From Mobula birostris (Eukaryota): 64,000 nt of DNA. The notes under the pieces were generated by a model. That model did not search any database. It was given only the letters and a program-made list of their open reading frames with translations, and was not told the origin of the DNA. Below, piece by piece: positions 4,251 to 62,309 of the stretch (position 1 is its first letter; every line of letters begins with the position of its first letter). Location of the stretch: positions 7,332,613 to 7,396,612 of the forward strand of contig NC_092392.1 of assembly GCF_030028105.1 (NCBI RefSeq), in the 5' to 3' direction. The position numbers were made by a program, and so were the translations under genes.

Positions 4251-4480
4251 TAACACACACACAGTGCTGGAGAAACTGAGCAGGTCAGGCAGCATCCATG
4301 GAGTGGGATAAAGAGTCGACATTTCAGGCAGAGAACCTTGTTCAGGACTCTTGTTGAAGGTCTTGGCCCGAAATGCAGCCTCTTTATTCGTCTCCTTACA
4401 TGTCTTCTGATCTTCTGAGTTCCTCTAGCATTTTGTATGTGGTGTTCTGGATTTTCGGCATCTGCAGAATCTCTTGTGTT
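4251..4480. mobile_element. Fold-back mini-element derived from the Penelope terminal repeat
   Basis: Inverted arms (acacacagtgctggagaaactgagcagg ... tctgagttcctctagcattttgtatgtg) match the 3' end of the Penelope at 11510-11610. Degenerate hammerhead motifs lie at the centre (4314-4349 minus; about 4350-4381 plus). Confidence 0.75.
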
Positions 4481-5539: not shown

Positions 5540-7107
5540 CAGGTATTCCCCACTTTTCGAACGTTCGCTTTACGAAACCTCACTGTTACGAAAGACCTAC
5601 ATTAGTGCCCTGTTTTTGCTTTCAGAAGGTGTTTTCACTGTTACGAAAAAAAATTCAGCGCGCGAAAAAATCAGCACACGATAAAAGACAGAGCACGCCC
5701 CGAGCAGCCACTCTCCCCCAGATTGGGAACTGCATCTCGCTGGCATTGCTATAACACGTGCCTGTGAGCAGCTGTTTGCAAGATGAGTTCTATGGTATCG
5801 GAAAAGCCTGAAAGAGCTCGTAAGGGTGTTACACTTACGGTAAAACTAGACATAATTAAGCGTTTCGATCGTGGTGAACAAAGTAAGGACAACGTGAGTT
5901 TGGCTTGTGGAAGCTGACGAACATGATGTTGAAGAGGTTTTGGCATCCCATCACCAAGAACTGACAGATGAAGAGCTGATGCAATTGGAAGAAAAAAGGA
6001 TAACAATCGAAACTGAATGAGTAATGATAAAGTATGACTTTAATTTTGAAAGGGTACGCCGGTTTAGGAGATATTTGCAGGATGGTTTGAGTCCTTATTA
6101 AAGAACTGTGTGATAGAAAAATGCACGAGGCTCAGCAGTCAAGCGAGCCTTCCACATCAGCCACAGCAGACGACGAACCTCAACCTTCGACATTGAGGCG
6201 GGCAGTCATAGGAGAAGATGAGCTGCCTGCCCTGATCGACGATGAGATGACACCCCAGTGTCCCACCACCCCAACCCCCAGGCCCCGGACAGATACCGAT
6301 TCGCAGAAAATGCAACAGTAGCCGGGACGCACACAGCACATTTTTAAGCAAAAAGCCGAAATGATCATGCTAATTAATTAGGTGCCGCCTAGCACGTAAT
6401 TGTCGGTCCAGATCAGTGCCGATGCAATCGGCAATCACCTCTGACCTGCGCCGACATTTACGTGCTGGGCAGCACCTAGTTAATTAGCTTGTTTATTTCG
6501 GCTTTTTTCTTAAAAATGTGCTGTGTGCCTCCTGGCTACCCCTGCGTGCTTTGTGGCAATGTATCAGTTGGCGGCCCGGAGGGTGAGGGCCACTGCACCA
6601 CCCAGCCTGTGACGACTCAGTCTAACACACCATCATCAGTGCGTTCGATGTCTTCCCAATTCCGGTAAGTGATACTACACTGTACATACATATTTTCTAC
6701 TTTATATAGGCTGTGTATTTTTACGTGTTATTTGGTAGATTTGGCAGCTTCATAGTTTAAAGGTTACTGGAGAGCGTGTTTATGCCAACAGCGCATGCGT
6801 GAGATTTTCTGCTGAGAGCGCTTGCGTGAGATTTTCGCAACGGAGATCTGTGCAGGCAATCGTTGTAGAGAAGTATTTCTACTTTATATATGTGTATTTA
6901 TCATATCATTCCTGTTTTTACTATATGTTACTGTTATTTTAGTTTTTATGTGTTATTTGGCATGATTTGGTAGGTTATTTTAGGGTCTGCGAACGCTCAC
7001 AAAATTTTCCCATATAAGTAAATGGTAATTGCTTCTTCGCTTTACGACATTTCGGCTTACAAACCGTTTCATAGGAACCTCTACCTTTGGATGGCGGGGG
7101 AAACCTG
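5540..7107 (+). mobile_element. Internally deleted Tigger/pogo DNA transposon
   Basis: TIRs caggtattcccc ... gggggaaacctg with TA TSDs (5538-39, 7108-09). From 5783 it encodes MSSMVSEKPERARKGVTLTVKLDIIKRFDRGE (CENP-B/psq HTH), joined to a C-terminal DVEEVLASHHQELTDEELMQLEE segment. The DDE domain is missing. Confidence 0.85.
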
Positions 7108-7235
7108 TATCTGTGAAAGCTGACACCTATTGCCTGCAAACAACAGGAATTCTGCAGATGCTGGAAATTCAAGCAACACACATAAAAGTTGCTGGTGAAC
7201 GCAGCAGGCCAGGCAGCATCTCTAGGAAGAGGTGC

Positions 7236-7271
7236 AGTCGACGTTTCAGGCCGAGACCCTTTGTCAGGACT
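7236..7271 (-). ncRNA. Minimal type-I hammerhead ribozyme motif (core variant CTGACAA)
   Basis: Minus strand reads AGTC-CTGACAA-AGGGTCTCGGCCT-GAAA-CG-TC-GACT. The G8 position is mutated. Confidence 0.55.
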
Positions 7272-7304
7272 CACAGGCCAGGCAGCATCTCTAGGAAGAG
7301 GTGC

Positions 7305-7340
7305 AGTCGACGTTTCAGGCCGAGACCCTTCGTCAGGACC
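7305..7340 (-). ncRNA. Minimal type-I hammerhead ribozyme motif
   Basis: Minus strand reads GGTC-CTGACGA-AGGGTCTCGGCCT-GAAA-CG-TC-GACT, with an intact core. Confidence 0.75.
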
Positions 7341-9454
7341 TATTGCCTGTGCTGTAGCAACAATATTTTTGTATAAATAATGGGAAAGTTAATTGAATAA
7401 TTTTGATAGAGTAATTAAAATTGTTACCACTGGCTAAATTTGGTGACAGCAGAATTATTATTAAGAACCAAAAATAAGGAAAGGTAAAAATGTCTGTTGT
7501 TTTTAAAGTGTGCAAAGTGATTTGGACTTTCCTGTGATTGAAGCAGTTTTGTTTGTAACTTTGAAAAGATTTTCAATATAAAATTGAAAAAGAATATAAT
7601 TGTAAACACGAGGAATTCTGCGAAGGTTTGGAGAAAGGGGGATAGAATGGTGCTATTTAGTTTGCTGTTTATAGATTAGTGAGAGGTTTAATGAGCTGAT
7701 TTGCTTCCTGAACTGTAATTCAATGGTACATTGGTAACTAATGTCCATGTCTGATGGATAAATTCTTACATTTTCCCCTTGTACTTTCATGTCATTGGGT
7801 GCCTTGTATTCAGGTATTGGGGACCCTAGATGTGAAGTTTCCTCTAGTTTTTTCTACTATCATCCTTTAAAGATTCTACTCCTTTAACAAGCCTTTTGGT
7901 CATCTAGCCTGATAGCTTCATCTTTAACTCAGTAGCTATTTTCATCTAATTAATTTTCAGCAGTTTGTGTTTTTTGCTCAAATTCTAACATTTTTCCTCT
8001 CTTGTATCTCCATGTTATAAGTGGCATTATAATAGTAATATGGATAGGAGCATTACTGTGTATAGTTGTATCATGTCCTGATGGGAAGACTTCAAAAAGT
8101 GGAAAACCTTTAGTCACATTTAAAATTCTAAAATATTCTATAAATTTAGGCAGCATTGAGGCTATGTTCTAACCGATTGGTATGTAAGTATCTGTTGCAG
8201 TCCAACATTCTCAATCTGGAAAAAATTGGACAAATACAATTTTAAAAAAAGGTTTTGAGATTTTATTCTGGGATTCCAAATGGTGGACATCATAATCGAG
8301 CTTGGACCGATTGTTATGAATGATTTTTTGCTCTGTTTGAAACATCACTCAGGAATTATTTGTCATTCATTGTCAGCTGGTGACAAAAATGACAAAAGTT
8401 CAAGGAAGTGTGTTCCTGCTGACTTGCAAGTTGAAGGCTGATTTGTATAGTTACTTCCTTGGATTTCCTCCTAATGGGGGAATGAACAGGTACTGCATAG
8501 AATAGCAGATACTCATTCTGAAGTATTTTGGTCAAACAACATCAGTATATTCATTAAATCAGACTTTAACCTCCATTCTAAATCACTTATCCTGAACAAT
8601 GTCTTATTGCAGCTACATTTGTGGTGCCTTTGCCTACCAGTGCTTTTGCTGGCTATAAAAGCAGTGTGAATCCATTATTTTTGTCTCTGGAACTAATTTG
8701 CCAAGGATTTGAAATTTAACAATCAACAGTTGATTTCAGTTTCTATATACTGTTATAAATTATCTAGATCTGAAAGTGTGCTGGTATGGTGTACAAGAGA
8801 TGCAGACAAGAATTCATTGCAATCTGATGCCATTTAGTCTGATCACTGGATAGAAAGGCCTCCAACATTCCCAATGTAACAGAGCTCAGAAAAATAAATA
8901 CTGGACAGGTGAAATGGCTTTCATTGATTCCTGTTTTTTTTTCGGCTGGAGTTATTCACAGAGAGAACTGAAGTCACTTCCAATCTGCTGCTGAGGCAAG
9001 AAAAAAAACTGATGTTGATATTTTTTATGTTGAATGGTATCTGGAAAATTTGATCCATTTAAATGGCAATTTTTTTTTAAAAAAAGCATCAGCAAAAGAC
9101 ATTCCCAAATGAATAACACAGTTGCTGTTTTCTTCCAGGCTGAAAATGTGCCAGTTTATTTCTTATAGCTTATAATTCATCTGATGGCATCAAGGTCATT
9201 TGGCACCTGCACCTCTAAGCTTCAGTGTAGATGAGTTGGAATTTTTTTTTATTTTCAAAGTTGACCGAGTTGCTTACTAGTTCAAAGGAAGTGCATACTA
9301 GGAGTCCAGAATGAAGGAACTAAAGGCTTGGAATCTTTCTGAGTGCTACACACATCTTCTAGTTAACCGTGTATTGGATGTTTAGGTATTCATTTAACCA
9401 ATTCATAGTTTATTGGTAAAAATACTATTTTATTTCAAACAAATTATGTGAGAC

Positions 9455-9856: not shown

Positions 9857-10582
9857 GCAACACACACAAAATGCTGGAGCAACTCAGCAGGCCAGGCAGC
9901 ATTTCTGGAAAAAGAGTACAGCCGATGTTTTGGGCTGATACACTTCGGCAGGGCTGGAGAAGTAAAGCTGAGATTAGATTTAAAAGGTGGACGGAGGGGA
10001 GAGGAGAGAGAAACATAAGCTGATAGGTGAACCCTGGAGGAGGGGAGGGGTGAAGTAAAGAGCTGGGAAGCTGATTGGTAAAAGAGATACAGGGCTGGAG
10101 AAGGAGGAGTCTGATAGAAGAGGGCTGAAGGAGTGGGTATATAGTAGGAGGGGACAGAAAGCCATGGAAGAAAGTAAAGGAGGAAGGAGCACCCGAGTGA
10201 GACGATGGGCAGGCAAGGAGATGAGATGAGAGAGCGAAAAGGGGATGGAGAATGGTGAGGGGTTGGGGCATTACTGGAAGTTCGAGAAAACGATGTTTAT
10301 GCCATTAGGTTGGAGGCTACCCAGATGGACTATAAGGTGTTGTTCCTCCAACCTAAGTGTGGCCTCATCACAACAGTGGAGGAGGCCATGGAGAGACACA
10401 TCAGAATAGGAATGGAATGTGGAATTAAAATGGGTGGCTACTGGGAGATCCCGCTTTTTCTGGTGGATGGAGCGTAGGTGCTCAGTGTTGCAGTCTCCCA
10501 ATCTATGTTCGGTCTCACCGATATATAAGAGGCCGCGCCAAACACAGTATATGACTGCAGCAGACTCACAGGTGAAGTGTTG
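9857..10582 (-). mobile_element. Penelope-like element, 3' part with GIY-YIG endonuclease remnant
   Basis: ORF 10271-10645 encodes VIYC..GLLYIGETEHRLGD..EHLRSI...PVATHFNS...RLEEQHLI..LGSLQPNGIN (GIY-YIG). It is followed by a pyrimidine-rich UTR and the terminal repeat. Confidence 0.9.
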
Positions 10583-10905
10583 ACTTTCCTTTCTTTTGCC
10601 TTCCTCCCTTCTTAAAGAGTGGAAAATAGCACTATAGCCCAGCAATGTAAGATGATCACTGGAAGCTCTGTAATGAAACTCAAAGAAACTTTCCTTTGTC
10701 CAAAACCCACAACCTTAGGAAATGCTTGAAGCGGTTAATACATTGAATAAAAGGACATTCAGAGAGAAGGGGGTAGTGTTTGACAGACAGATTTAGATGA
10801 TTAAATAGCGAGGTTTGAGTTGAGCATAAATACTACCAAGGATTGATGGCTAAAATGAACTTTGCCTGTGTTGTAAACCAATGTAAAAATATTACAGTGC
10901 ATGCT

Positions 10906-11610
10906 TTGAGGCGACACTTCACCTGTGAGTCGGCTGGGGTGACATACTGTGTCCGGTGCTCCCGATGCAGCCTTCTATATATTGGCGAGACCCGACGCAG
11001 GCTGGGAGACTTTTGCTGAACACCTACGCTCTGTCCGCCAGAGAAAGCAGGATCTCCCAGTGGCCACACATTTTAATTCCACGGCCCATTCCCATTCTGA
11101 TATGTCTATCCACGGCCGCCTCTACTGTCAAGATGAAGCCACACTCAGGTTGGAGGAACAACACCTTATATTCCGTCTGGGTAGCCTCCAACCTGATGGC
11201 ATGAACATTGACTTCTCTAACCTCCGTTAATGCCCCACCTCCCCTTTGTACCCCATCTGTTATTTATTTATTGTATATATTTTTTTCCCTCTGTCCCTCT
11301 CACTATACTCCTTGCCCATCCTCTGGGCTTCTCCCCCCCCCCCCCCGTCTTTCTTTCTCCCTAGGCCTCCCGTCCCATGATCCTCTCATATCCCTTTGCC
11401 AATCAACTTTCCAACTCTTGGCTCCATCCCTCCCCCTCCTGTCTTCTCCTATCATTTTGGATCTCCCCCTCCCCCTCCCACTTTCAAATCTCTTATTATC
11501 TCTTCTTTCAGTTAGTCCTGACGAAGGGTCTCGGCCTGAAACGTCGACTGTACCTCTTCCTATAGATGCTGCCTGGCCTGCTGCATTCACCAGCAATTTT
11601 TATGTGTGTT
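10906..11610 (+). mobile_element. Penelope-like element, 3' part with frameshifted GIY-YIG endonuclease
   Basis: Encodes RHFTCESAGVTYCVRCSRCSLLYIGETRRRLGD, then after a frameshift FAEHLRSV...RLEEQHLIFRLGSLQPDGMNIDFS. The terminal repeat carries a hammerhead motif. Confidence 0.9.
11514..11549 (+). ncRNA. Minimal type-I hammerhead ribozyme motif in the Penelope pLTR
   Basis: AGTC (11514-17), CTGACGA (11518-24), stem II, GAAA (11538-41), CG, TC^ (11545), GACT (11546-49). Stem I pairs and the stem III region is the palindrome ACGT. Confidence 0.8.
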
Positions 11611-11999
11611 CTTTGAGAAGGTTGTTGCTTTGTTGTTTCAAATCTCTTGTGATTTTGACACTTTCCTATTGAGAATAGCTCATTTGGCTCAAGAATTATA
11701 TATGACTGAGAATATCTCTCCCTATTTGTCTCAGATACACCTGCCTTGACCAGTTGAATAACTGGGTGTCAGATTCAAATAGTTTTAGTTTGGATAGATT
11801 ATTTACAACAATCTGGCTGTTCTTGGCAGATGTGAAAATTGCCAGCAATTCAAGAAAATGGATGAAATAGTCAGCACATATATGTTATTGCCACTCTTTT
11901 AGCTAGGAAAAAAGTCAGTAAAATGTTAGGCAGAGTTGACAAAGTCTTGTGAAGTTGAACATCTTTAGCAGACCTAGACTTTAAATCATAGTTGCATAG

Positions 12000-20768: not shown

Positions 20769-21925
20769 AACGATATAACAATTACAACACGGAAACAGGC
20801 CATCTTGGCCCTTCTGGTCCGTGCTGAACTCTTACTCTCACCTAGTCCCACCGACCTACACTCAGCCTGTAACCCTCCATTCCTCTCCTGTCCATATAGC
20901 TGTCCAATTTAACTTTAACTGACAACATCAAACCTGCCTCAACCACTTCTGCTGGAAGCTCGTTCCACACAGCTATCACTCTCTGAGTAAAGAAGTTCCC
21001 CCTCATGTTACCCCTAAGCTTTTACCCTTTAACTCTCAACCCTGTGTTTAGACCCTGTGTATCCAGATAATTATATATACCATCTCTAAGAATACTTTCC
21101 ATCAATTTACCCACCACTGATGTCAAACTCACAGGCTGATAATTGCTAGGTTTACTCTTAGAACCCTTTTTAAACAATAGAACAACACGAGTAATACGCC
21201 AATCCTCCGGCACCATCCCCGTTTCTAATGACATTAAGAAAAGAAATTGTTCAAAATCTCCCCCATCTCTTTTGGCTCCGCACATAGCCATCCACTCTGA
21301 TTCTCTAAGGGACCAATTTTATCCTTCACTATCCTTTTGCTATTAATATAACTGTAGAAACCCTTTGTATTTATTTTCACCTTACTTGCCAAAGCAACTT
21401 CATATCTTCTTTTAGCTTTTCTAATTTCTTTCTTAAGATTCTTTTTACATTCTTTATATTCCTCGAGCACCTCATTTTCTCCAAGCTGCCTATATTTATT
21501 GTAGATCTCTCTCTTTTTCTGAACCAAGTTTCCAATATCCCTTGAAAACCATGGCTCCCTCAAACTTGTAACCTTTCCTTTCAACCTAACAGGAACATAA
21601 AGATTCTATACCCTCAAAATTTCACCTTTAAATGACCTCCATTTCTCTATTATATCCTTCCCATAAAATAGATTGTCCCAATCCACTCTTCAAAATCCTT
21701 TCGCATCTCCTCAAATTTAGCCTTTCTACAATCAAAAATCTCAAGCCTGGGTCCAGTCCAATCCTTCTCCATAATTATATTGAAACTAATGACATCGTGA
21801 TCACTGGATCCGAAGTGCTCCCCAACACATACCTCTGTCACCTGACCTATCTCATTCCCTAACAGGAGATCCAACACTGCCCCTTCTCTAGTTGGTACCT
21901 CTATGTATTGCTGCAAAAAACTATC
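20769..21925 (-). mobile_element. Internally deleted CR1 LINE
   Basis: 3' tail at the left. Encodes GMVPEDWRIT..LFKKGSKSKPSNYQPVSLTSVVGKLMESI and FLQQYIEVPTREGAVLDLLL. Confidence 0.88.
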
Positions 21926-22350
21926 TTGCATTATGCTTCTTCCACCATGCTTCACAGTTGGAATGATGTTTTGGTGTTGGTGTGCAGCGCCCTTTTGCCT
22001 CCAAACACAGGAGTTTGTATTTCTGCCAAAATTTTCAACTTTTATTTCATGTGTCCGTGATAATGTCCCAGAAACCTTGTTGAACATCCAGATGGTCTTT
22101 TGCTAACTTGAGACATGCAGCAAATTATTTATTTATTTTTTTTTGGAGAGCTGTGGTTTCCTTCGTGGTGTTCTTTCATGGACATTCTTGTTCAATGTTT
22201 TTCTTATAGTGGACGCATGAACAGAGCCTTTAGCAAGCTCTAGAGATTTCTGCAGATCTTTTGCTGTTACCCCAGGTCCTTTTTCACCTCTCTCAGCATT
22301 GCACATTGTGCTCTTGGTGTGATGCCCACTCTTAAGGATGATTTATACTT

Positions 22351-34487: not shown

Positions 34488-36465
34488 TAGTGGTCCCCAA
34501 CCACTGGGCTGCAGACCGGTACTGGGCCGCAAAGCATGTGCTACCGGGCCACGAGGAAACGGTATGAGTCAGCTGCACCTTTCCTCATTCCCTGTCACAC
34601 CTACTGTTGAACTTGAACACACGCGAGGTCATTACCCACGTGAAGACATCAGTTGGTCATTAACCTACAACTACTTGATGAATAAAAAACAAATGTCGCC
34701 TGAGAGTTTCTTTGGAAGAGATGGTAGGGGACATAAAAGGCCTAACGATGATGATAACACAGAGACAGCTGAGGCCGGGACTGCAAAAAAAAAAAGAAAG
34801 CTTCCTTCCATAGAAAATACGATGAGTCGTACATAAAATATGGCTTTATTGCGACCGGTGACTAGCACGCTCCAAGCTCCCTGTATGTGATATGTGGAGA
34901 CAAGCTGTCTAATGAGGCAATGAAGCCCTCAAAACTGCTTCAGAACCTTGAGTCCAAGCACAAGACAAACCCCGTTGAGTTTTTTGAGCGGAAAAAACGT
35001 GAGCAAGCGGAACAGAAGCAAGTGCTGAGAGCCACCGCCTCCACAAATGCTGCTACTCTGAGAGCGTCATACTTAGTGGCCAGCCGTATTGCTAAGGCTA
35101 AGAAGCCTTTCACTGTTGGTGAAGAATTGATTCTGCCTGCTGCCAAGGACATGTGCCGAGAACTGTTGGGAGAAGCTGCAGCTAACAAGATGGCACAGGT
35201 TTCTTTTTCTGCTACCACAGTTTCAAGGAGAATTGAAGGACATCGAAGCATAGCCTTTGGGATGGCTTAACGAGTCTGGTTTCACTACCCGAGTCAAAGA
35301 GGTTGCTCCTGAATGCCAGTCTACACACTGTCACACACAGGGAAATGCTGGCTAGCCAAAAAATGTCACCTGATGTTAACAGCGTATTGAGTGACGATGT
35401 TGAAGTTATCAATCACATCAAAGCCAAAGCCCTTAACTCATGTCTGAATGAGCAGCTTTGCGAGGAAATGGATGCAGAGCACAAATGCCTTCTCTTACAC
35501 ACTGAAGTCAGGTGGCTATCAAGGGGGAGAGCCCTGGCCAGTGTTTTTGAGTTAAGAGAGCAGCTACAGAGATTTCTTTCAGGAAGAAAGTCACCACTGG
35601 CAGCATACTTCAGTGACGAGGAGTGGATAGCAAAACTCGCTTATCTGTGTGACATCTTCAACCAGCTCAATGAACTCAATTTGTCACTTCAGGGGAGAAT
35701 GTCAACTGTCTTCAAGTTGGCAGATAAAGTGTCTGCTTTCACAGCCAAACTGGAACTGTGGGGACAGTGAGTGGACAGGGGCATATTTGACATGTTCCCA
35801 ACATTAACTGGGATTTTGGGAGAGACTGAGGCTGCACCGTCCTTCTTACAGCTGGTGCACGATCACCTATCTTCACTGTCGACAGAATTGGAATTACTTC
35901 CCAACCGCAAATGACCCAAGATGTGCAAAGGAATGGGTCCGTGACCCATTTGTGAATGTCCCCGGTGAATCATCTACGTCAGCACGGGAAGAAGATCAAC
36001 TCCTCGAGCTTGAAAATGATGGTGGGCTGAAAAGTATGTTTGACGTAACATCTCTGCTGGCATTCTGGATCAAAGTCAAGGCTGAATATCCTGAGATAGC
36101 CACAAAAGCACTGAAAACTTTGCTTCCATTTCCAACATCATATCTCTGCGAAGCGGAGTTTTCTGCAATGAATGCAAGGAAAACTAAATTGCGGAATAGA
36201 CTGGACATAAGGAACCTCCTTATGACTTATAATTGACATCACTATATTCATGCGAGGAAAATAGGCGCTGTGTGTTTAATATTAAATTCATTAGGTAAAC
36301 CCTTTTAGAAACAAAATTGAGTTTATTAGCCACTGATGACTTATAGTTGACTTATCACCTATATTCCGGTCATGATTAACACCCCCCTCCCCGCCGGTTG
36401 CCGGTCCACAAGAATATTGTCAATATTTAACCAGTCCGTGGTGCAAAAATGGTTGGGGACCCCTG
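34488..36465 (+). mobile_element. hAT Charlie/Buster transposon (ZBED5/Buster-like pseudo-transposase) inserted in Gypsy gag
   Basis: TIRs tagtggtccccaacc / ggttggggacccctg. Encodes BED finger ICGDKLSNEAMKPSKL..LESKH, LLLHTEVRWLSRG and FPTSYLCEAEFS, with frameshifts and an internal deletion. Confidence 0.93.
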
Positions 36466-42193: not shown

Positions 42194-43060
42194 CTGTATG
42201 CTGACAAGAGGTACCTTCCTTGCTCTCCTCATAGATATGATAGCCAAGCCTTACTTGAATATAGCTGTCTTGAGCCCAGCCTGTAATTATTACAAACAAA
42301 TGGCTACTGTCTTGTTCTCATGCTTATTAGGTCTTGAAGACCTTGGATCCTAGTGATACAAGCAATTGTCCAACTTATGGCTGCTGCTTTCTAAAGCTGA
42401 GAAAATGTTACATTGGGATATCGTGCCATGTATCTTGCCAGATTGGCTCATTCATGCTATTGCTGTGTTTATTTCAGAGTGTTAATTACTGTCAGTGCCT
42501 TTCCTGGAACTTTTCCTGACTTTGGAACCTTGTGATCAATTATGATTGATAGTTCACTTCATCCCTTTATTTATGTCATCATTAATCTTCTTGCTTAATT
42601 TTTCTTAATGTTTTCAGAGAAATTCATAGATAATATGGCAAACTCCAAAATTCTGTTATGACCCCACAATATTCGTGTCTCTAATCTGCGGTGACCATTT
42701 TAACCCTTTGACTACCACAATTTAATCAATACCTTTGCCATTTGGATGATATGACATGTTATATGCCTACACATCAGTCGATTGGCTAGCTTGATTTAAG
42801 TCAATCTATGTCCTGAATTTGAACATTCTTATACCATTCAATATCAAGTAACATTTTCAAATAGTAGTTGACTTCCTGTTTTGTTTTCCTATCTATTCCA
42901 AATCAATAGGGATGCCTAGTGAAATAGATGCAAGATATTAAAGCAAGCTAATGTTGAGGGTAGCTATTAGTTTCTTAATTATGTATTATTTTTAAGATAA
43001 CTTATAGATAAGAAGCTAGAAACAATTGTAGGGCAAGTAAAATTGAAACCTCTAAAGTTG

Positions 43061-45761
43061 TGATAAATGAAGTGGATAGACTAAAAATTAACATCATAAG
43101 AATTAGCAAAGTTCATTGGACAGGTGCTAGAACATGTCAGGATAGAAATAAAACACTAATTTATTCTTGTGGAACATCCCATACTAATGGAGTAGGAATT
43201 CTTATGGATGAAAACATGGCAAAAAGTGTTTTAGGACATTGGACAACATTAGAAAGAGTGCTGTTTGTTAGATTCAGAGGACAACCATTTGATTTAGAAA
43301 TTATACAGGTATTTGCACCAACAACAGATGGAACAAATGAGGATATAGCTAAATTCTATAAAGAGCTTGAACAAGCAAAGAATGGATGCAAATCTCAAGG
43401 TATTGTTGTTGTCATGGGAGATCTAAATGCTAAAGTAAGACAAGGTGCTGATGGAAATACCATAGGAAAATTTGGACTAGGGGAAAGAAATGAAAGAGGT
43501 GAGAAATAGGTAGAATGGTGCAAAATGAATAATCAGGTCATTATGAATACCTACTTTAAAAACCATCCAAGATGCTTGTGGACCTGGAAAGGTTCAGGAG
43601 ATAGCACCAGAAATCAAATTGACTTTATTACTATAAACGAAAGATTTAGAAACTCAGTGACTCAATGCAAAACATATCCAGGTGCAGACTGTAATAGTGA
43701 CCATAACCCAGCAATATGTCATGTAAAAGTCAAACTTAAAAAACTAAAGAAGCAAAAACCTGAACAATCCCTTGACTACTTGCAATTAATTAAAGAAGAA
43801 AACTTAAGACAAAATTTACAATTGAAGTAAGGAATAGATTTCAAAGTCTAGAAATAGAATCTGTTGAAGATGATAGCAATGATGTAGAAATCAAGCACAA
43901 GGAATAAATGGATGATAGATGAAATTAAAAATCTAATGGAAGAAAGGAGACTGAAGAAAGCAAATCCTATAGAATTTAAGTCCTTAGATAAAAAAAAGTT
44001 AAAAACTTATGTCAAAGAGCCAAAGAAGAATGGTTAAACCAGGAATGTGAGCAACTAGAAAGAATCCCTATTCCTGATCCAGAAAGGGTACATCAACAAA
44101 TCAAGAATATTACTGGTAAAAAGCTCCTCTGTTCTTCAGGTGGATGTTTGAAAGCAAAGGACGGTACCATTATCATGGAAAAAGATGAGATTATGAACAG
44201 ATGGACTGAGTATATTCAGGAATTGTTTGAAGATGATCGAGGCGAAAAACCAGAAATTAAGAAGAACATTGAAGGTCCAAGAATTTTAAAATCTGAAGTT
44301 CATAATGCAATAAATAAGATGAAGAAAGGAAAGGCAGCAAGTCCTGATGAATTAGTAATAGAACAAATTTTCGCCTTGAAGATTATGGAATTGAAAAACT
44401 TACTGATTTAATCGATGACATTTATAAGACTGGAATAATACCAGAAGAGATGAAAAAATCGGTATTTATCACTCTTCCTGAGAAACCTGGAGCGATAGAA
44501 TGTGAATGACGTAGGACCATAAGTTTAATGAGTCATATCACTAAGATACTTCTAAAAAATTTTGATGACAAGAGCTAAAAGTAAGATACAAGCTGAAATA
44601 GGTAAAGAACAATGTGGTTTTGTGAAAGACGAGGGTACAAGAAATGTAATATTGATGTTTAGGATACTATCAGAACGAGCTATTCAAGTGCAATACACAA
44701 AAACATTTGATAAAGTGACGCACAATAAGTTATTTGAAATATTACAGGAAAGTCTGAATCTAGATTCGAAAGACTTCCGCCTAATCAGAAATCTGTACTG
44801 GGAACAAACTGCCGCCGTTAGACTAGATAGAGAAGTGAGTCAGTTTACGAAAATCAAGAGAGGCATTAGACAAGGGTGTGTTTTCTCCCCTGATTTGTTT
44901 AATGTGTATAGTGAAACAATATTACAAAAAATAAGAGACATCTTGGGAATCAAAGTTTGCGGTGAAAACATCAATAATTTTAGATATGCTGATGACACTG
45001 TGTTAATTGCAAGTACGGAGGAAGAACTACAAAACTTAATTGATATAGTTGTTGAAGAAAGTGCAAAAATGGGTCTATCTATCAATTGCAAAAAGACAGA
45101 ATGTATGGTGATATCCAAAAATAAGGAGAATCCTATCTGCAGGCTGAAAATAAACAGGGAAGACATAAAACAGGTACAGAACTTTTGCTGTTTAGGAAAC
45201 TGGGTGACATCAGATGGCAGGTGCGACATGGACATCAAACGAAGAATAGGGATGGCAAAAGCCACCTTTACGAGAATGAAGAGTATAATGACCAACATTA
45301 GCCATGACAACCCACCTCAGAGCACTGAAATGTTACTTTTATTCAGTTATATTATATGGCTCAGAATGTTGGATAATATCTAGTAACATGAGGAAACGAA
45401 TTGAAGCAGCAGAGATGTGGTTTTTGAGGAGGATGCAAAGAATATCATGGACGAAACGAATATCTAACGAGGATGTCATGAACAGAGCAAGCACAAAAAG
45501 AGGAATAATGTATGAGATCATGAAAAGGCAACGTAACTTCATTGGACATCTGATTAGGAAAGAGGGGTTAGAATGCATGGTAATTATGGGAAAGATTGAA
45601 GGAAAGAAAGCAAGAGGAAGGCAAAGACGAATGGTGATGGAGACAGCAGCCAGAGAACTGGAAATGAATACCAATGAATTGATCCTCTTAATCCGAAACA
45701 GGAGTGTGTGGGCCATGGCAGTCAAAGCTCAATCTGGGCATGGCACCTGATGATGATGATG
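43061..45761 (+). mobile_element. RTE-clade LINE, 5'-truncated, APE endonuclease plus RT pseudogene
   Basis: APE motifs VMGDLNAKV, NQIDFI and SDHNP. RT motifs GIRQGCVFSPDLFN and FRYADDTVL. (tga)n tail and TSD aagttg (43055-60, 45762-67). Confidence 0.95.
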
Positions 45762-52809: not shown

Positions 52810-55800
52810 ATAAGAACATAAGAAACAGGAGCAGGAGTTGAGCCTACTCCACCATTCAATAAGATCATGGCTGATCTGGTCATGGACTCATCTCCACCTC
52901 CGTGCCTTTTCCCCATAACCCTTAATTCCCCTACTACGAAAAATCTATCCAACCTTGTCTTAAATATATTTACTGAGGTAGCCTCCACTGCTTCATTCGG
53001 CCAGAATTCCACAGATTCATTACCCTCTGGAAAAAGCCGTTCCTCCTCATCTTCCTCCTAAATCTACTCCCCCGAATCTTGAGGCTATGTCCGCTAGTTC
53101 TAGTCTCACTTAACAGTGGGAAAAAACTTTCCTGCCTCATATCTATCCTTCTCATAATTTTATGTTTTTATAAAGTATTCTGTTATTCTTCTGAATTCCA
53201 GCAAGTACAGTCCTAGACAATTCAATCTCTCCTCATAGTCTAACCCCCTCATTTCTGGAATCAACCTGATGAAACTCCTCTGCACTGCCTCCAAAGCCAG
53301 TATATCCTTCCTCGAGTAAGGAGACCAGAACTACACGCAGTACTCCAGATGAGGCCTCATCAGTACCCTGTTAAGTTGCAGCATAACCTCCCAGCTCTTA
53401 AATTCAAACATTTTAGCAGTGAAGGCCAACATTCCATTTGCCTTCTTGATAGCCTGCTGCACTTGCAAACCAACCTTTTGTGATTCATGTACAATCACTC
53501 CCAAGTCCCTCTGCACAGCAGCATGCTGCAGTTTATTACCATTTAAATAATAAACTGCTCTTTCATTTTCCCTACCAAAGTGGATCACCTCGCATTTACC
53601 AACATTGTACTCCATCTGCCAGATACTTGCCCACTCACTTAGCCTATCTATATCTCTCTACAGACTCCTCATATCTTCGGGACAATTTGCTTTTCCACTG
53701 AATTTAGTATCATCAGCAAACTTGGGTACACTACATCCCCTCTTCCAGATCGTTAATGTATATTGAGAACAGTTGTGGGCCCAGCACCGACTCCTGCCGC
53801 ACGTCACTCACCACTGATTGTCAACCAGAGTAACACCCATGTATCCCAACTCTCTGCTTTCTGTTAGTTATCCAATCCTCTATCCATGCTAACATATCAC
53901 CCCCAACTCTATGCATCCTTATCTTATGGATAAGTCTTTTATGTGGCAGCTTACCAAACACCTTCTGGAAATCAAAGTAAGTAACGTCCATCTGTTCCCT
54001 CTATCCAGTGCACTTGTTATATCCTCAAAGAACTCCAGTAAGTTTGTCAAACAGGACCTGCCTTTGCTGAATCCATACTGTGTCTGCCTGATGGATCCAT
54101 TTCTTTCCAGATGCCCCACTATTTCTTCTTTAATGATAGCTTCAAGCATTTTTCTAACTACAGATGTTAAACTAACTGACCTACAGTTACCTGCATTTGG
54201 CCTACATCCTTTTTTGAACAGTGGCATGACATTCACTGACTTCCAGTCCACCAAGACCTGCCCAGAATCCAGAGAATTTTGGTAAATCATCACCAAAGCC
54301 TCCACTATAAGTTCTTCCATTTCTTTTAGTACCCTGGGATGCAATCCATCAGGACCAGGGGACTTGTCTATCTTCAGGCCCACAAGTTTTCTCAGCACTA
54401 CTTCTTTCGTGATAGCTATCATATCGAGGTGCTCACCTCCCATCGCATCCATAGCATCTCTCTTTGACATGTTAGATGTGTCCTCCACCGTGTAGACCAA
54501 CACAAAATAGTCATTCAAAGTCTTGGCCATTTCCTCATTACCCAATATCAATTCCCCCTTCTTGTCCTCCAAGAGACCTACATTCACTTTAGCCACTCTT
54601 TTCTGCTTTATATAATTATAAAAACTTTTACTATCTGTTTTTATATTTTGTGCTAGATTCGTTTCATAATCTAGCTTCCCTTTCTTTATTGTTCATTTAT
54701 TGGTACTTAGTTGCTTTATAAAGTTTTCCCAATCTTTCAGTATCCCACTACTCTTGGTGACTTTGAATGTACGAACTTTTAGATTGATTCCTTCATTTAT
54801 TTCCTTAGATATCCAAGACTGACTCTCCCCACCCTTGCTGTCCTTGCTTTTAACTGGAATATACTGTTGTTGAGCACCATGAAAAATTCTTTTGAAAGTC
54901 TTCCACTGTTCCTCAGTTGACCCACCATATAGCCTGTGTTCCCAGTCTACACTAGCCAAATCCTCCCTCATCCCATTGTAGTCTCGATTGTTTGGGCATA
55001 ATACACTGGTTTTAGATTGAACTATTGCATCCTCCATTTGTATGAGAAATTGAGTCATACTGTGATCATTCTTTTGAAGAGGATCCCTAACTACAAATCA
55101 CTAATTTTACCTCTCCCATTTCACAGGACCAAATCTAAGATGGAACGTTCCCTCGTAGGTTCAGTAACATGCTGTTCAAGAAAGCCTTCATGGATGCATT
55201 CTATGAAGTCCTCCTCAAGATTACCTTGACCAACTTGATTCACCCAATCTATGTCCAAGTTAAAGTCCACTTTGATAGCTGCTGTTCCATTCTTACACAC
55301 CTCAGATATTTCTTTGTTTATTGTCTGTGTCACTGTAATGTTATTAGTCAAAGGCCAATAGATAACTTCCACCAGTGTTTTTTTTTTCCTCTTTACTATT
55401 CCTAATCTTTACCCAGATGGATTCAGCATTCTTCTTTTTGGATCTTATATTGTGTCTCACTATCGCCCTGATCTCATCTTTAATTAAGAGTGCTATCCCA
55501 CCTCTCTTACCTTCCTGCCTATCCTTCTGTATTACCTGATATCCTTCGATATTTAATTCCCAATCCTCTTCACCCTGCAACCACGTCTCTGTAATGGCCA
55601 CTAAATCATACCCCTTTGTACTGATTTGAGCCACAAGTTCACTGACCTTGTTTCGAACACTACAAGCATTCAAATAAAGTTGAATGCCTTACACTCATTG
55701 TGCTTTAAAACCTTGTAATATTTTACTCTTTTGCATTTAACTATTCTTCACTCCACTCTTGCTTTTCTCTTTTTTTTATCTTTGCTTTTGCTTGATCTTT

Positions 55801-56930: not shown

Positions 56931-58223
56931 AGAAGCACGTGACAGTATTTCACAAACCATTGGAAAATTTGGTACTTCTATATCATAAATAAAAGTTGTT
57001 GATCACTAGAATTATGTAAATTATTTAGTTTTTATTTACTGTTTAACTTCAGATGCAAAGAAGAGGAAAAATGATTTTTCTTACTTTTGACACAATTATT
57101 CTGCCCTTGAACCAATTAAGAAAATAACGCATTGGTAACTTTTGCAACAGTATGCTAACATAAAAGTAGGCTTACTTTGTTTTAGCTAAAGTAATATGCT
57201 GACAGGATTAGAAATTTTGAGATTTTTGCAGATTTCAACTTCAATGCTTCTCTTTCAAATATTTGTAAGTTGTTGCCATGGAAATACTATATTGCCAAGT
57301 ATATGGCAAAATTTGAGTAGAATTTATAAAGCAGAGAGATGTTTTGCAATATTTTAACTAATCATATTTAAAGCCTTTGGACTCTTAAACTATCAGCCAG
57401 GAATGCTAGGAATATTTAAGAATACAAAAGCTAAATACTGTGGATGCGAGAAATGTGAAATAGTAGAAAGCATTGTAAATATTTAGTTAAAGCTGTGAAG
57501 GGAGTAACAGTTTAACGGACAGAGTTAGCGGTGTAAATGTTTGAACAAAGTATGGAGGTAGGGAAACAGAGAACAAGAGTCAGACTGCTGAGGTGGAAGA
57601 CAGGAAAGATTAAATAATGACTACTTTGGAGAACATTTTGTACTTACAGGTGTAGTATCATTCCTGAACCAGTCTGCTAAATGTCTGTTGACTTGAGACG
57701 GTTGCCCTTGAAGATGGAGGCATATTTTGAGGGTGTTTTAAGCAGATTGTTCTGCCTCTGGCTTGATGCTCTTAGTTCCTGCTTATATGAACCTGTCTTG
57801 CCCAAGTGCAGTGTGGTGACCAGACTAATCTGCAGGGATCACTTTCTTTGTAATTTCCTAGTTGGCTCATCCCGCCCCATCCCCAGGCATATTTGTTAGT
57901 AACTTTAGTGGATGCAATATCACCTTGACCATCATTGAGGGCGTTCCTCGTGTGGCAACCCCTCCCCCATCATCCTATTTCTTATCCCTCCTCTAGTCAC
58001 ACCATTTGTCTTTCACCCCTCCTCACCTAAGTCCACTGATACTTGCAACCTCTTGCTACAGCCCCTTCCAACCAGCTTTTTAAAAGGCCATCTTTGCTAT
58101 GTTACCGTAGACGAGGAATGTTCCTTTAGACAAAGTTAAGAATCTCTGGGTACAAGACTTACAGGCATCAATATCTGAGGAAACTTGGAATGAAATTTTT
58201 AAACTGGTTAATATGTCATCGCT

Positions 58224-58355
58224 AACAACAGGATTCTGCAGATGATGGAAATTTAAGCAACACACATAAAAGTTGCTGGTGAACACAGCAGGCCAGGCAG
58301 CATCTCTAGGAAGAGGTGCAGTCGACGTTTCAGGCCAAGACCCTTCATCAGGACT
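58224..58355 (-). mobile_element. Short Penelope-derived insertion with hammerhead motif, inside L1
   Basis: Nearly identical to 7139-7271. The minus strand of 58320-58355 reads AGTC-CTGATGA-AGGGTCTTGGCCT-GAAA-CG-TC-GACT. Confidence 0.85.
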
Positions 58356-58949
58356 ATGTGCTTACCATTGCTTTATACAATTTAAGGTGGTACATAGAGT
58401 TCATATGACTAAGGATAAGCTATCTCATTTTTATTCAGATATATCTTCATACTGTGACAGATGCAATAACGGAGAAGCTTCATTAATTCGTATGTTTTGG
58501 ACTTGTCCATGTCTTGAAAAATATTGGAAGGAAGTTTTTCAAACTTTTTCTTTGCTTTTCAAAGTCAATTTTAAGCCTAATCCTCTGACGACCCTATTCG
58601 GTATTGTTGCTGGACAAGATATCAAGTTGAAGACATCAGGTTTACATATTTTGGCCTTTAGCTCTCTTATAGCTAGGAGGGCGCTTTTGTTTAAATGGAA
58701 CGATGTTTCTCCTCCTACTCATGCTCAATGGTTATGCAATGTTATGTCATGCTTAGATTTAGAAAGATTTGTTTTTCAATTTCTGAATCTCGTCAAGACT
58801 TTCAAACATTGTGGGGACCCGTTCTGAATTATTTTCGAAACTTTCAAAACCCTCAATTCGTTGTTTAAATTTAGATGTTGGCTATTATTAATTTTTATTA
58901 TACGAGAAGGTATTTTACCTTTTTTTCCTTCTTAATAAACAGCTTCGGT

Positions 58950-59863: not shown

Positions 59864-60065
59864 AACACACGCAAAATGCTGGAGAAATTTAGCAGGTCAG
59901 GCAGCATCTATGAACGGAATAGAGTTGTGATTTGGGCTGAGACCCTCTCAGGCTTGGTCTTGGCCTGAAATGTTAACTCTTACTCCTTTCCATAGATGCT
60001 GCCTTGTCTGCTAAGTTCTTACAGCCATCTTGTGTGTGTTATTCCGGATCTGCAGAATGTCTTGT
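59864..60065. mobile_element. Penelope-derived fold-back mini-element
   Basis: Inverted arms aacacacgcaaaatgctgg...gcagcatctatg / catagatgctgcc...ttgtgtgtgtt. Confidence 0.7.
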
Positions 60066-62309
60066 TTATATTCAGTCAATCATATCTTTAACTTGGCAGA
60101 GGGGTGGCTTAGAAATTAGTGAAGCAGTAACAGTGGTTTCCTTAATATCTCTCTCCTTGCCATTACCTCCACTATCTTTATATTCCCTTTTACCTCACGT
60201 CTTCAACTTCTCCTTTAAAAACCTTCATCTATTATAGGCAACTCTGCAATGATTAATTGAAGGCTTTCTCCAATGCCAGCTTGACCTTTATCAGTTTTTG
60301 TGTTTTTTGTTAAAATTGCCTATTCTCTGTTATTGTGAAAATTCACAGAATTTATTTGTTCTCGAGACTCTGTTAAGCAAATGCGTAATATATTATTCTT
60401 TCAAGTTTCTCTAATTTGTGCCTTAAAAGTGCATTGAGGCCTATGGGAGAGAATAAGAATGCTGCTATTATTATTTATTCAGTGCCAGTTGTTTACCTGA
60501 GAATTGAGTTTATGAAATGCATTGTCATGTTGGGCTATACCCTAAAGGGACATATCGTATGCGGGTTTAGCAGAGCAGTGAGAGGTTGGACTGTGTTTGC
60601 TCAATCATCCCATCCTTGTTGTAAGAGGAGAGGAAGTGCGTTCCACCACATTCTACCAAGGAGGCCACCTACAGTGTCGAATGCAGTAACAAGATAGCCA
60701 AAAATGCACGAGTTGGATTGCAAGTTGCATAACAAAGGCAGCAACATCCTGTTCAGGACTAGAAAAGTAAACTTGCAGTAAATTGACAAAGTGATATTTG
60801 TCTAAACGGTGCATATTTAAGAGTTGTTAATGTTTATAGGGGTACCTATAATGAGCTATGGTGATTAGATCTAATTTAATATGTGGCAAATCAGGTTAAT
60901 TAGGAAAAAGTGATATCCCCAAGAAATGAGACAGGAGCACGATCGTTACAAGATTTTTGAATATGATCATCACACAGTTGAGAAAAATCTTTAAATATGT
61001 AAATATTTTAGGTTGTGTCTACATGTGAGATAAGGAATGGTAATTTGGAATAATCCAGGCTGGATTTTTGGACATTTTCAGCTTCAATCTTACTAATAAT
61101 TAATGATTAGAGATAAAATAACTATAAAGATATCAATGGTCTATTTGTAATGGGAATTTTTGTGGGTATTTTTGTGCAAGGAATCCATTTCACATATTGG
61201 TGGACAAATGTCATGTATTTATTGGAGCACCTTGTATTTGAATCTGAATGAAATGATTAAGGACCAACATTAGCATATTTCAGTGCAATGTAGGTGAAAA
61301 TATTGTAAAACTAAACAATGACTTGGCAGTATTGTGATGATACATTTATTGTTGGTCCTCATTTGCAATTTAAACCAAAGAATATAGTTCCCAGGTTAAA
61401 TCGTGAAACTTTACTTGAGATTAGGGATAGATAATCCTCTGCTTTTTCTGCCCATACAGAAGAAAGACCAAACTAAAGGAAGCCAGAGTTAAGCAGCTAA
61501 AGTTCATTAGTTTTGTATTTTTAGTAATCTTGGTTTTAAACACTGAAGTATGCTTCCAACCTCGTAATTCTCCATAATCATCCTTTATTGATTGCATCTT
61601 CTATCCTCAATGTAATTGTAGCAGTAACTCTAAATGTCATGTTTCTGGTATAACATTATTGAGTCCACGATATATATAGACATCTTGTGTAACTGAGCAC
61701 TATGTTAAAGTTTAGATCATTTATTGTACAAAAATCATGTCTTTTGATTTTAAATCAGGATTGTCAGCTTATTACCATGTTTTTGAATCGTAGGTTCACT
61801 GGCAGTCTCTAAGTCCAGTATAGAGCTTGGATGCTTTGCTGCCAGAGCTAACGTCCTTCAGAAGAAATGTTAACCTTAAGAATTTGCTTGTTCTGAAGGT
61901 TTGTCATTTTGGTAGACTCCAACTAACGGCATGTCCTGTCTAGGGTTCTTCAGTTTAAACAGCACATTAGGAAAAGAACTAATTCATCTCATTTGTCAGA
62001 CCTTGCTGTGCACAGTCTGGATTCTACATGAAATACTTAATTAAATGCGATGAGCTTAGAGATAAGTGGTTAGCTCTATCAAGGAGCCAGCATCGTCACG
62101 GTGTCGAGTGGCCACCTCCTGTGCTCTTTGATTCTGTGATTGATGAGGTACTCTGTAAATAAATCTTTCATTCAAGTTAAGCACCTCAATTTCATTTACT
62201 CAATCCCAGTGTTTTAACTCCGTGCAGCATTCAGAACGTTGGCATGAAGTATAGTTTTTGAGCTTGAATCCATCACATGTTTGATTGCTATGTAAATTAC
62301 TGAAAATAA

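Follow-up and report, generated by a model that had tools for sequence, protein, structure and literature searches.

The window (the whole 64-kb stretch of DNA analysed, with positions counted from its first letter) contains an insert of 201 bp between identical 12-bp direct repeats at 7125-7136 and 7338-7349, and the minus strand of this insert carries two head-to-tail units, each with a hammerhead motif (Table 1). By a rough estimate, the chance of a 12-bp repeat across two 30-nt flank zones is ~1e-4. A tandem-repeat measure within the insert gave a period of 69 nt, 2.0 copies and 98%, and the 66-nt units 7205-7270 (unit B) and 7274-7339 (unit A) are identical at 65 of 66 positions. The architecture given in the original prediction, with 12-bp direct repeats around an insertion of roughly 200 bp and two head-to-tail 69-nt units inside it, is thus borne out. 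Unit B extends 68 nt (7204-7137) past the repeat, and the insert is therefore more than two units alone.

A contig with a second organism label also has the right junction and its flank, differing at 1 of 246 nt, so the insertion is likely older than the split of the two. Of about 151,000 contig pieces, 32 were listed, and not one of these spans the tandem junction by 31 letters to either side; a contig presumed to be RNA (X19 record 16) reaches 7278, only 7-8 letters beyond the junction, and was not counted as bridging. Two sets of contigs presumed to be RNA had zero cover over the unique right flank, a result with no bearing on expression. At 7601-7621, 250 nt from the insert, 21 nt resemble the outermost 3' end of the element (86%) and are possibly a tiny insertion.

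Table 1. Features of the insert and of related copies in the window. Signed numbers are positions relative to hammerhead C3, the start of the core.
Feature	Positions	Strand	Remarks
Target-site duplication (TSD), 3' side of element	7125-7136		Identical to 7338-7349
Putative optional Penelope "tail" (~35 nt), to farther 3' end class (+125 to +130)	7137-7172	-	Contig loose ends 7136-7138; compare available parts of PMC11167929 and PMC8557442
Rest of element 3' end, to nearer 3' end class (about +92 to +98)	7173-7204	-	Contig loose ends at 7172-7174
Unit B, same 66 nt as unit A	7205-7270	-	G8A at 7262 (CpG transition)
Minimal hammerhead B	7236-7271	-	Mutated core CUGACAA; C17 at 7240
Three non-repeat junction letters between units	7271-7273	-	1 base off family sequence upstream of hammerhead
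Unit A, repeated 5' part of element, -3 to +62	7274-7339	-
Minimal type I hammerhead A	7305-7340	-	Intact core CUGACGA; stem II GGGU/GCCU around CUCG (or AGG/CCU); ACGU stem III half
TSD, 5' side of element	7338-7349		Last 2 nt (minus strand) overlap unit A start (microhomology)
Second long copy, more decayed	9857-10582	-	Head-to-head with 10906-11616 copy
Longer copy, same family	10906-11616	+	Frameshifted end of GIY-YIG-like ORF; pyrimidine-rich pLTR of 278 nt; hammerhead with intact core at 11518; tail absent
Monomeric short copy	58221-58356	-	95% identity to unit B with tail; core CUGAUGA intact; start at -5

An abundant family with two 3' end classes

The insert is one copy of an abundant dispersed family, a context absent from the original prediction. 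A permissive search with unit B plus tail gave 11 matches in the 64 kb, namely the two units and nine other fragments with 68-95% identity. In run X1, 55,104 contigs fell on the stretch, with a summed depth of 8.2 million over the element and 9-28 over the right flank; such summed depth is not a copy number, and we read it solely as "very highly repeated." Short units start between -3 and -7 (n = 5: both units here and the copies at 58.3, 59.5 and 4.3 kb). The two long copies belong to different subfamilies (79% alike, about 320 nt apart), and their starts in the endonuclease region differ by no more than about two codons. Three other copies were tested for a TSD of at least 7 nt and none had one, as against the 12 bp found here.

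Relative to C3, the 3' ends of the copies in the window fall at +92 to +98 (n = 5) and at +125 to +130 (n = 4), with one decayed end at +119 (n = 1), and the top loose ends of the contigs, at 7172-7174 and 7136-7138, mark the same two classes about 35 nt apart. On this analysis, we read the two classes as the optional 30-40-nt Penelope tail, which in the available text of PMC11167929 is tied to two reverse transcriptase (RT) start sites. Head-to-head pairs are found at 4252-4480, 59864-60066 and 9857-11616, and among contig joints 6 of the 15 rows shown (of 96) change strand. As far as the available parts of PMC8557442 and PMC3846280 go, Penelope-like elements (PLEs) show partial tandems, inverted 5' copies, TSDs of 8-10 bp and microhomology joins. 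The pairs at 4252-4480 and 59864-60066 are old hammerhead-plus-tail copies, joined at or inside the hammerhead.

The link to an ORF, and the clade

Both long copies run from an ORF end through a pyrimidine-rich pLTR to the same hammerhead, with 278 nt from stop to core in the copy at 11.5 kb. The ORF ends (10906-11240 and 10582-10274) match the proteins P0001 and P0003. Among 32 longer candidates, eight were relatives of the ORF end, six of which are labelled as Mobula hypostoma or Hypanus sabinus, which makes a ray the likely source of the window. Pfam GIY-YIG matches were obtained in six of the eight (E 3e-4 to 0.05, all below the gathering score), and the same search gave no GIY-YIG match on the ORF remnants of the window itself. 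The relatives have YxDD, read by eye, and CX3-4CxxC is visible in P0001-P0004, P0006 and P0008 (six of the seven fetched); we take these strings to be the RT motif and the linker, respectively. The window copies begin downstream of the linker. Because a CX2-5CxxC linker before the endonuclease is described as diagnostic of Neptune/Nematis (PMC8557442, available part), the linker in the relatives points to these clades, and the family is likely, judged from sequence, an endonuclease-bearing PLE of the Neptune clade.

A more distant counterpart, L001 (49% protein identity), shares the core and ACGU, which lie about 130 nt beyond its ORF match; its stems I and II are changed yet paired. The combination of a Penelope-like ORF end and a minimal hammerhead lies at L001:1-1400, in a contig of an Endozoicomonas MAG, and is likely animal-host DNA contaminating the bacterial bin. 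A search of viral_contigs with P0001 found no relative, and the hammerhead family pattern had no match in metagenome_contigs or viral_contigs. The exact junction pattern also had no match in metagenome_contigs, which is uninformative because the family pattern is missing there too. Our literature searches found no report joining Penelope, elasmobranch and hammerhead ribozyme, and, of the papers on Neptune in sharks, none was on this Penelope family by title or opening of the abstract. The supplementary tables of bioRxiv 10.64898/2026.07.22.740005 may already list it.

The hammerheads and their predicted activity

Read on the minus strand, hammerhead A has C3 at 7336 and C17 at 7309, and hammerhead B has C3 at 7267, G8A at 7262 and C17 at 7240, with ACGU following GAA in both. 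Unit A has all elements of the minimal PLE motif (CUGANGA core, GAA, palindromic stem III, stems I and II), and unit B fails at G8. Two minimal Penelope-type hammerheads with ACGT as stem III, one core intact and the other mutated, had been proposed on this strand together with a downstream cut site at 7240/7239, and all of this agrees with our reading. The conserved G10.1-C11.1 pair is replaced by G.U in units A and B and in two more young copies; L001, where hammerhead A has its covarying counterpart, has G-C. A scan of the 64-kb window with Rfam gave no family at gathering score.

The double hammerhead that had been suggested can be drawn with standard or wobble pairs throughout, and core A then faces the 7240/7239 bond, which is the only site that an intact partner core could cut in cis according to this model, core B being without G8. 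The pairing thus stands, but folding predictions speak strongly against the active form: the ensemble constrained to the double hammerhead lies 23-26 kcal/mol above the free one (37 C, four sequence contexts), and that with one active site alone 13-15 kcal/mol above it (37 C, two contexts). These are nearest-neighbour energies that leave out Mg2+, tertiary contacts and protein and were computed with no active-ribozyme control, so they indicate only that the tandem does not favour the active fold in the model. In unit A, the TSD letters lengthen a competing hairpin that buries the core.

The change G8A is expected to inactivate a hammerhead; our search found no literature on G8A in hammerheads. 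In the available text of PMC11167929, G8C abolishes activity, the hammerhead studied there is uncleaved without the protein of its element, and no reads end at the cut site. Three of the five variable sites among four young units are CpG transitions, G8A included. The position of G8A and of two of the four other variable sites in CpG fits neutral decay.

Joints, the junction 10-mer and acceptor-like tracts

Among the letter-containing contig joints, 8 of the 12 shown (of 105) go back, and half of these 8 start at 7339/7340, with periods of 36, 39, 53 and 72 nt. The breakpoints of the 72-nt joint (X1) are nearly those of this locus. The pile-up at 7339 is partly forced because the reference stopped at the hammerhead edge, without the upstream pLTR, and a junction identical to the one in this insert would not appear as a joint. 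The window itself has one tandem of the 69-nt type. The joint from 7339 to 7310 (X1; 36-nt period, one row) lies elsewhere in the genome, and its upstream unit stops a single base short of the hammerhead cut site; RT may have jumped onto an RNA end left by cleavage, or the position may be fortuitous.

The 10-mer spanning the junction (7268-7277) occurs three times in the window, counting both strands: at this junction and, in the two long copies, 10 and 16 nt in from the 5' end. In 20,000 dinucleotide shuffles of the 711-nt copy, a match of at least 10 nt was found in 0.6%, and within the first 30 nt in 0.015%, in a test that was chosen post hoc, after the match was seen. Just where short copies start, the long copies have an acceptor-like polypyrimidine tract plus AG (11489-11515 on the plus strand, ending at -7 and -3; 9954 on the minus strand, ending at -3). 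Similar acceptor-like tracts lie elsewhere in the pLTR, at 5 and 9 sites in the two long copies. A Penelope intron in Drosophila virilis is described in the available part of PMC2377424, and according to that of PMC4209133 it ends at helix I of the hammerhead. We rejected canonical splicing between GTGAG at 10925 and the acceptor-like sites 11511/11515, which would give other junction letters, and also canonical back-splicing as a source of the junction, since no GT follows the last base of unit A in the monomer.

Discussion

Our preferred reading, to which we assign a probability of roughly 70%, is that the insert stems from an abundant Penelope-like retroelement, likely a Neptune, of which it keeps only the 3' end (minimal hammerhead plus tail) after 5' truncation, and that the 69-nt repeat was made by an RT template jump during one target-primed insertion. 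Template jumping had also been offered in the original prediction as a source of the tandem, and it is the origin that we prefer. The anatomy, the family and its ORF link are observed, and from them we infer the jump, the order of events and the activity. The RT-endonuclease of the element would have nicked the target and started at the far end of the tail (7137), copied about 135 nt up to the 5' edge of the hammerhead, and jumped back to +62, so that the same 66 nt were copied again; the second copy would then have joined the target by a microhomology of 2 nt, leaving the 12-bp TSD. Deamination of a CpG likely turned G8 of unit B into A at a later time. The end of unit A is informative here: it falls at +62, 35 nt past C17 (+27) and at neither 3' end class, which means that the junction is not a ribozyme cut and that unit A is not an independent insertion. 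Unit B has the family's A at -4, which is missing at the TSD-side junction of unit A, and two of the three junction letters (7271-7273) match the family sequence upstream, as against one of three for the flank; these letters slightly favour an RNA template for unit B over a local duplication, in a case that turns on 1-3 junction letters.

Alternatively, a monomer may have inserted first and the repeat may have arisen later at the DNA level, through replication slippage or break repair. The 65/66 identity of the units speaks for it, the weak self-similarity of the family after +62 and before the core could guide slippage, and the insertion, seemingly common to the second organism label, leaves time for it. 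Such a duplication, however, should have carried TSD letters into the junction, where the flank is matched less well than the family, and its second start would happen to be the usual start point of the family, so we consider it unlikely. The three letters can also be reached from an internally deleted RNA template or by two jumps, the version with two jumps running from the hammerhead edge, over a skip of ~590 nt, to the 5' leader (4-nt microhomology) and thence to +62 (a second 4-nt microhomology). The restriction of the 10-mer to this junction and to the neighbourhood of both long-copy starts, with its shuffle values, speaks for the leader; the post hoc choice of that test weighs against it, as does the fact that the scheme accounts for three letters only, which one substitution or untemplated additions explain too, and we regard it as quite improbable.

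The most far-reaching alternative is a propagating mini-retrozyme, in which the 69-nt unit is excised by the double hammerhead, circularised and reverse transcribed by rolling circle. It can draw on the formal possibility of the pairing, on the low activity of PLE hammerheads even as dimers and the circles proposed as their templates in the available part of PMC4209133 (where minimal hammerheads in pLTRs are mostly scattered single motifs from truncated elements), and on the accessible part of bioRxiv 10.64898/2026.07.22.740005, in which animal retrozymes are traced to pLTRs and have consensus lengths of 51 bp upwards. Several details of the locus speak against it. Ligated ribozyme ends could not make the first unit with a junction 35 nt away from the cut site, a 69-nt circle could not supply the 68-nt tail beyond the unit, the repeat has just 2.0 copies, the mutated core means that both ends are not cleavable in cis, and the four other joints shown at the same boundary differ in period. 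Further, the preprint saw no cleavage in eight of nine Xenopus dimers. We thus hold this origin to be very improbable, and copying around a small circle, as had been suggested for the tandem, is not supported for the same reasons of junction, tail and period. Least probable of all, the insert would be an assembly artefact or the product of independent insertions, one nested in the other. PLEs are reported to insert beside existing copies (PMC6765202, available part), and the contig pieces listed leave the junction unbridged; yet the end of unit A belongs to neither 3' end class, a single TSD surrounds the whole insert, and an artefactual doubling would not yield a one-base difference between units together with three distinct joining letters.

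The term retrozyme-like is not supported for the locus as it is now. The non-LTR retrozymes of PMC7229834 are, in its available part, canonical hammerheads in tandems of 150-450 bp that are expressed as circles, and here the motif is minimal and the period 69 nt. The bioRxiv preprint, as far as its available text goes, extends to minimal motifs, to consensus lengths of 51-972 bp and to one chondrichthyan genome, reports cleavage in one of nine dimers and requires two consecutive complete motifs; the G8A of unit B leaves the second motif incomplete, although both may have been complete at the time of insertion. If the minus strand were transcribed, a double hammerhead could form in which only the 7240/7239 bond would be cleavable. 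The active fold is predicted to be rare, so that cleavage would be weak or absent without help from a protein, and no 69-nt circle would be released.

Compared with known systems, as described in the available parts of the sources, the locus is close to the Neptune EN+ PLEs (PMC8557442, PMC3846280). The likenesses are a hammerhead in the pLTR downstream of an RT-linker-GIY-YIG ORF, an optional tail of 30-40 nt, 5'-truncated partial tandems and head-to-head copies, and a short TSD with microhomology at the 5' junction. This copy differs from them in having only the hammerhead plus tail, without ORF or pLTR body. In addition, the classical tandem that forms a pLTR repeats the 3' end of the element, whereas the part repeated here is without it, and the TSD is 12 bp rather than the 8-10 bp cited for rotifer copies. 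The motif itself resembles the minimal PLE hammerheads (PMC4209133; Lünse et al. 2016/17 via PMC6765202) in its CUGANGA core with an extra nucleotide after A9, its short stem I, its loopless palindromic stem III and its dimer-dependent geometry; it departs from them in the G.U at 10.1-11.1 in place of the conserved G-C, in the G8A of one core, and in having partners 69 nt rather than kilobases apart. Poseidon of Anolis carolinensis (PAc; PMC11167929) shares the tail from two RT start sites and a hammerhead just upstream, but it is of a different clade, and protein-assisted cleavage and in vitro insertion without the hammerhead were shown for PAc, whereas our case is made from sequence. Non-LTR retrozymes (PMC7229834; bioRxiv 10.64898/2026.07.22.740005) are similar in their tandem type I hammerhead units and proposed origin from PLE pLTRs; the classical ones, however, have abundant circRNA and longer units with canonical hammerheads, in contrast to the non-repeated tail and broken core found here.

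The most likely reading is thus that a truncated Penelope end of an ordinary sort acquired a short duplication as it inserted and has decayed neutrally since then. As a single locus it matters little, being one decayed copy of a very common retroelement end. The value lies with the family, whose short copies start at the hammerhead edge and whose contigs show varied tandem and inverted joints there, and a genome with so many copies could show, by junction counts, how Penelope tandems arise and what the hammerheads do in vivo. The start sites, the shared 10-mer and the acceptor-like tracts together hint at defined template ends and at jumps between them. Tentatively, and with the odds well against it, the family may have defined 5' ends of its template, one at the acceptor-like hammerhead edge and the other about 600 nt upstream in the endonuclease region, with the RT jumping there and routinely building very short hammerhead tandems. 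If so, the 69-nt dimer would be the seed of a vertebrate retrozyme caught in the act, and the mini-tandems of ray genomes would be a natural library for studying template switching by Penelope RT and for asking whether the ribozyme cuts in vivo.

Other features of the window lie apart from the family. An inverted repeat at 6269-6588 has arms of 155 nt that are 76% complementary and 10 nt apart, and we take it to be, possibly, a MITE-like remnant. Broken ORFs at 34866-36236, 43012-45750, 53893-55097 and 21234-22102 are presumably remnants of DNA transposase and of LINE endonuclease/RT, which they look like.
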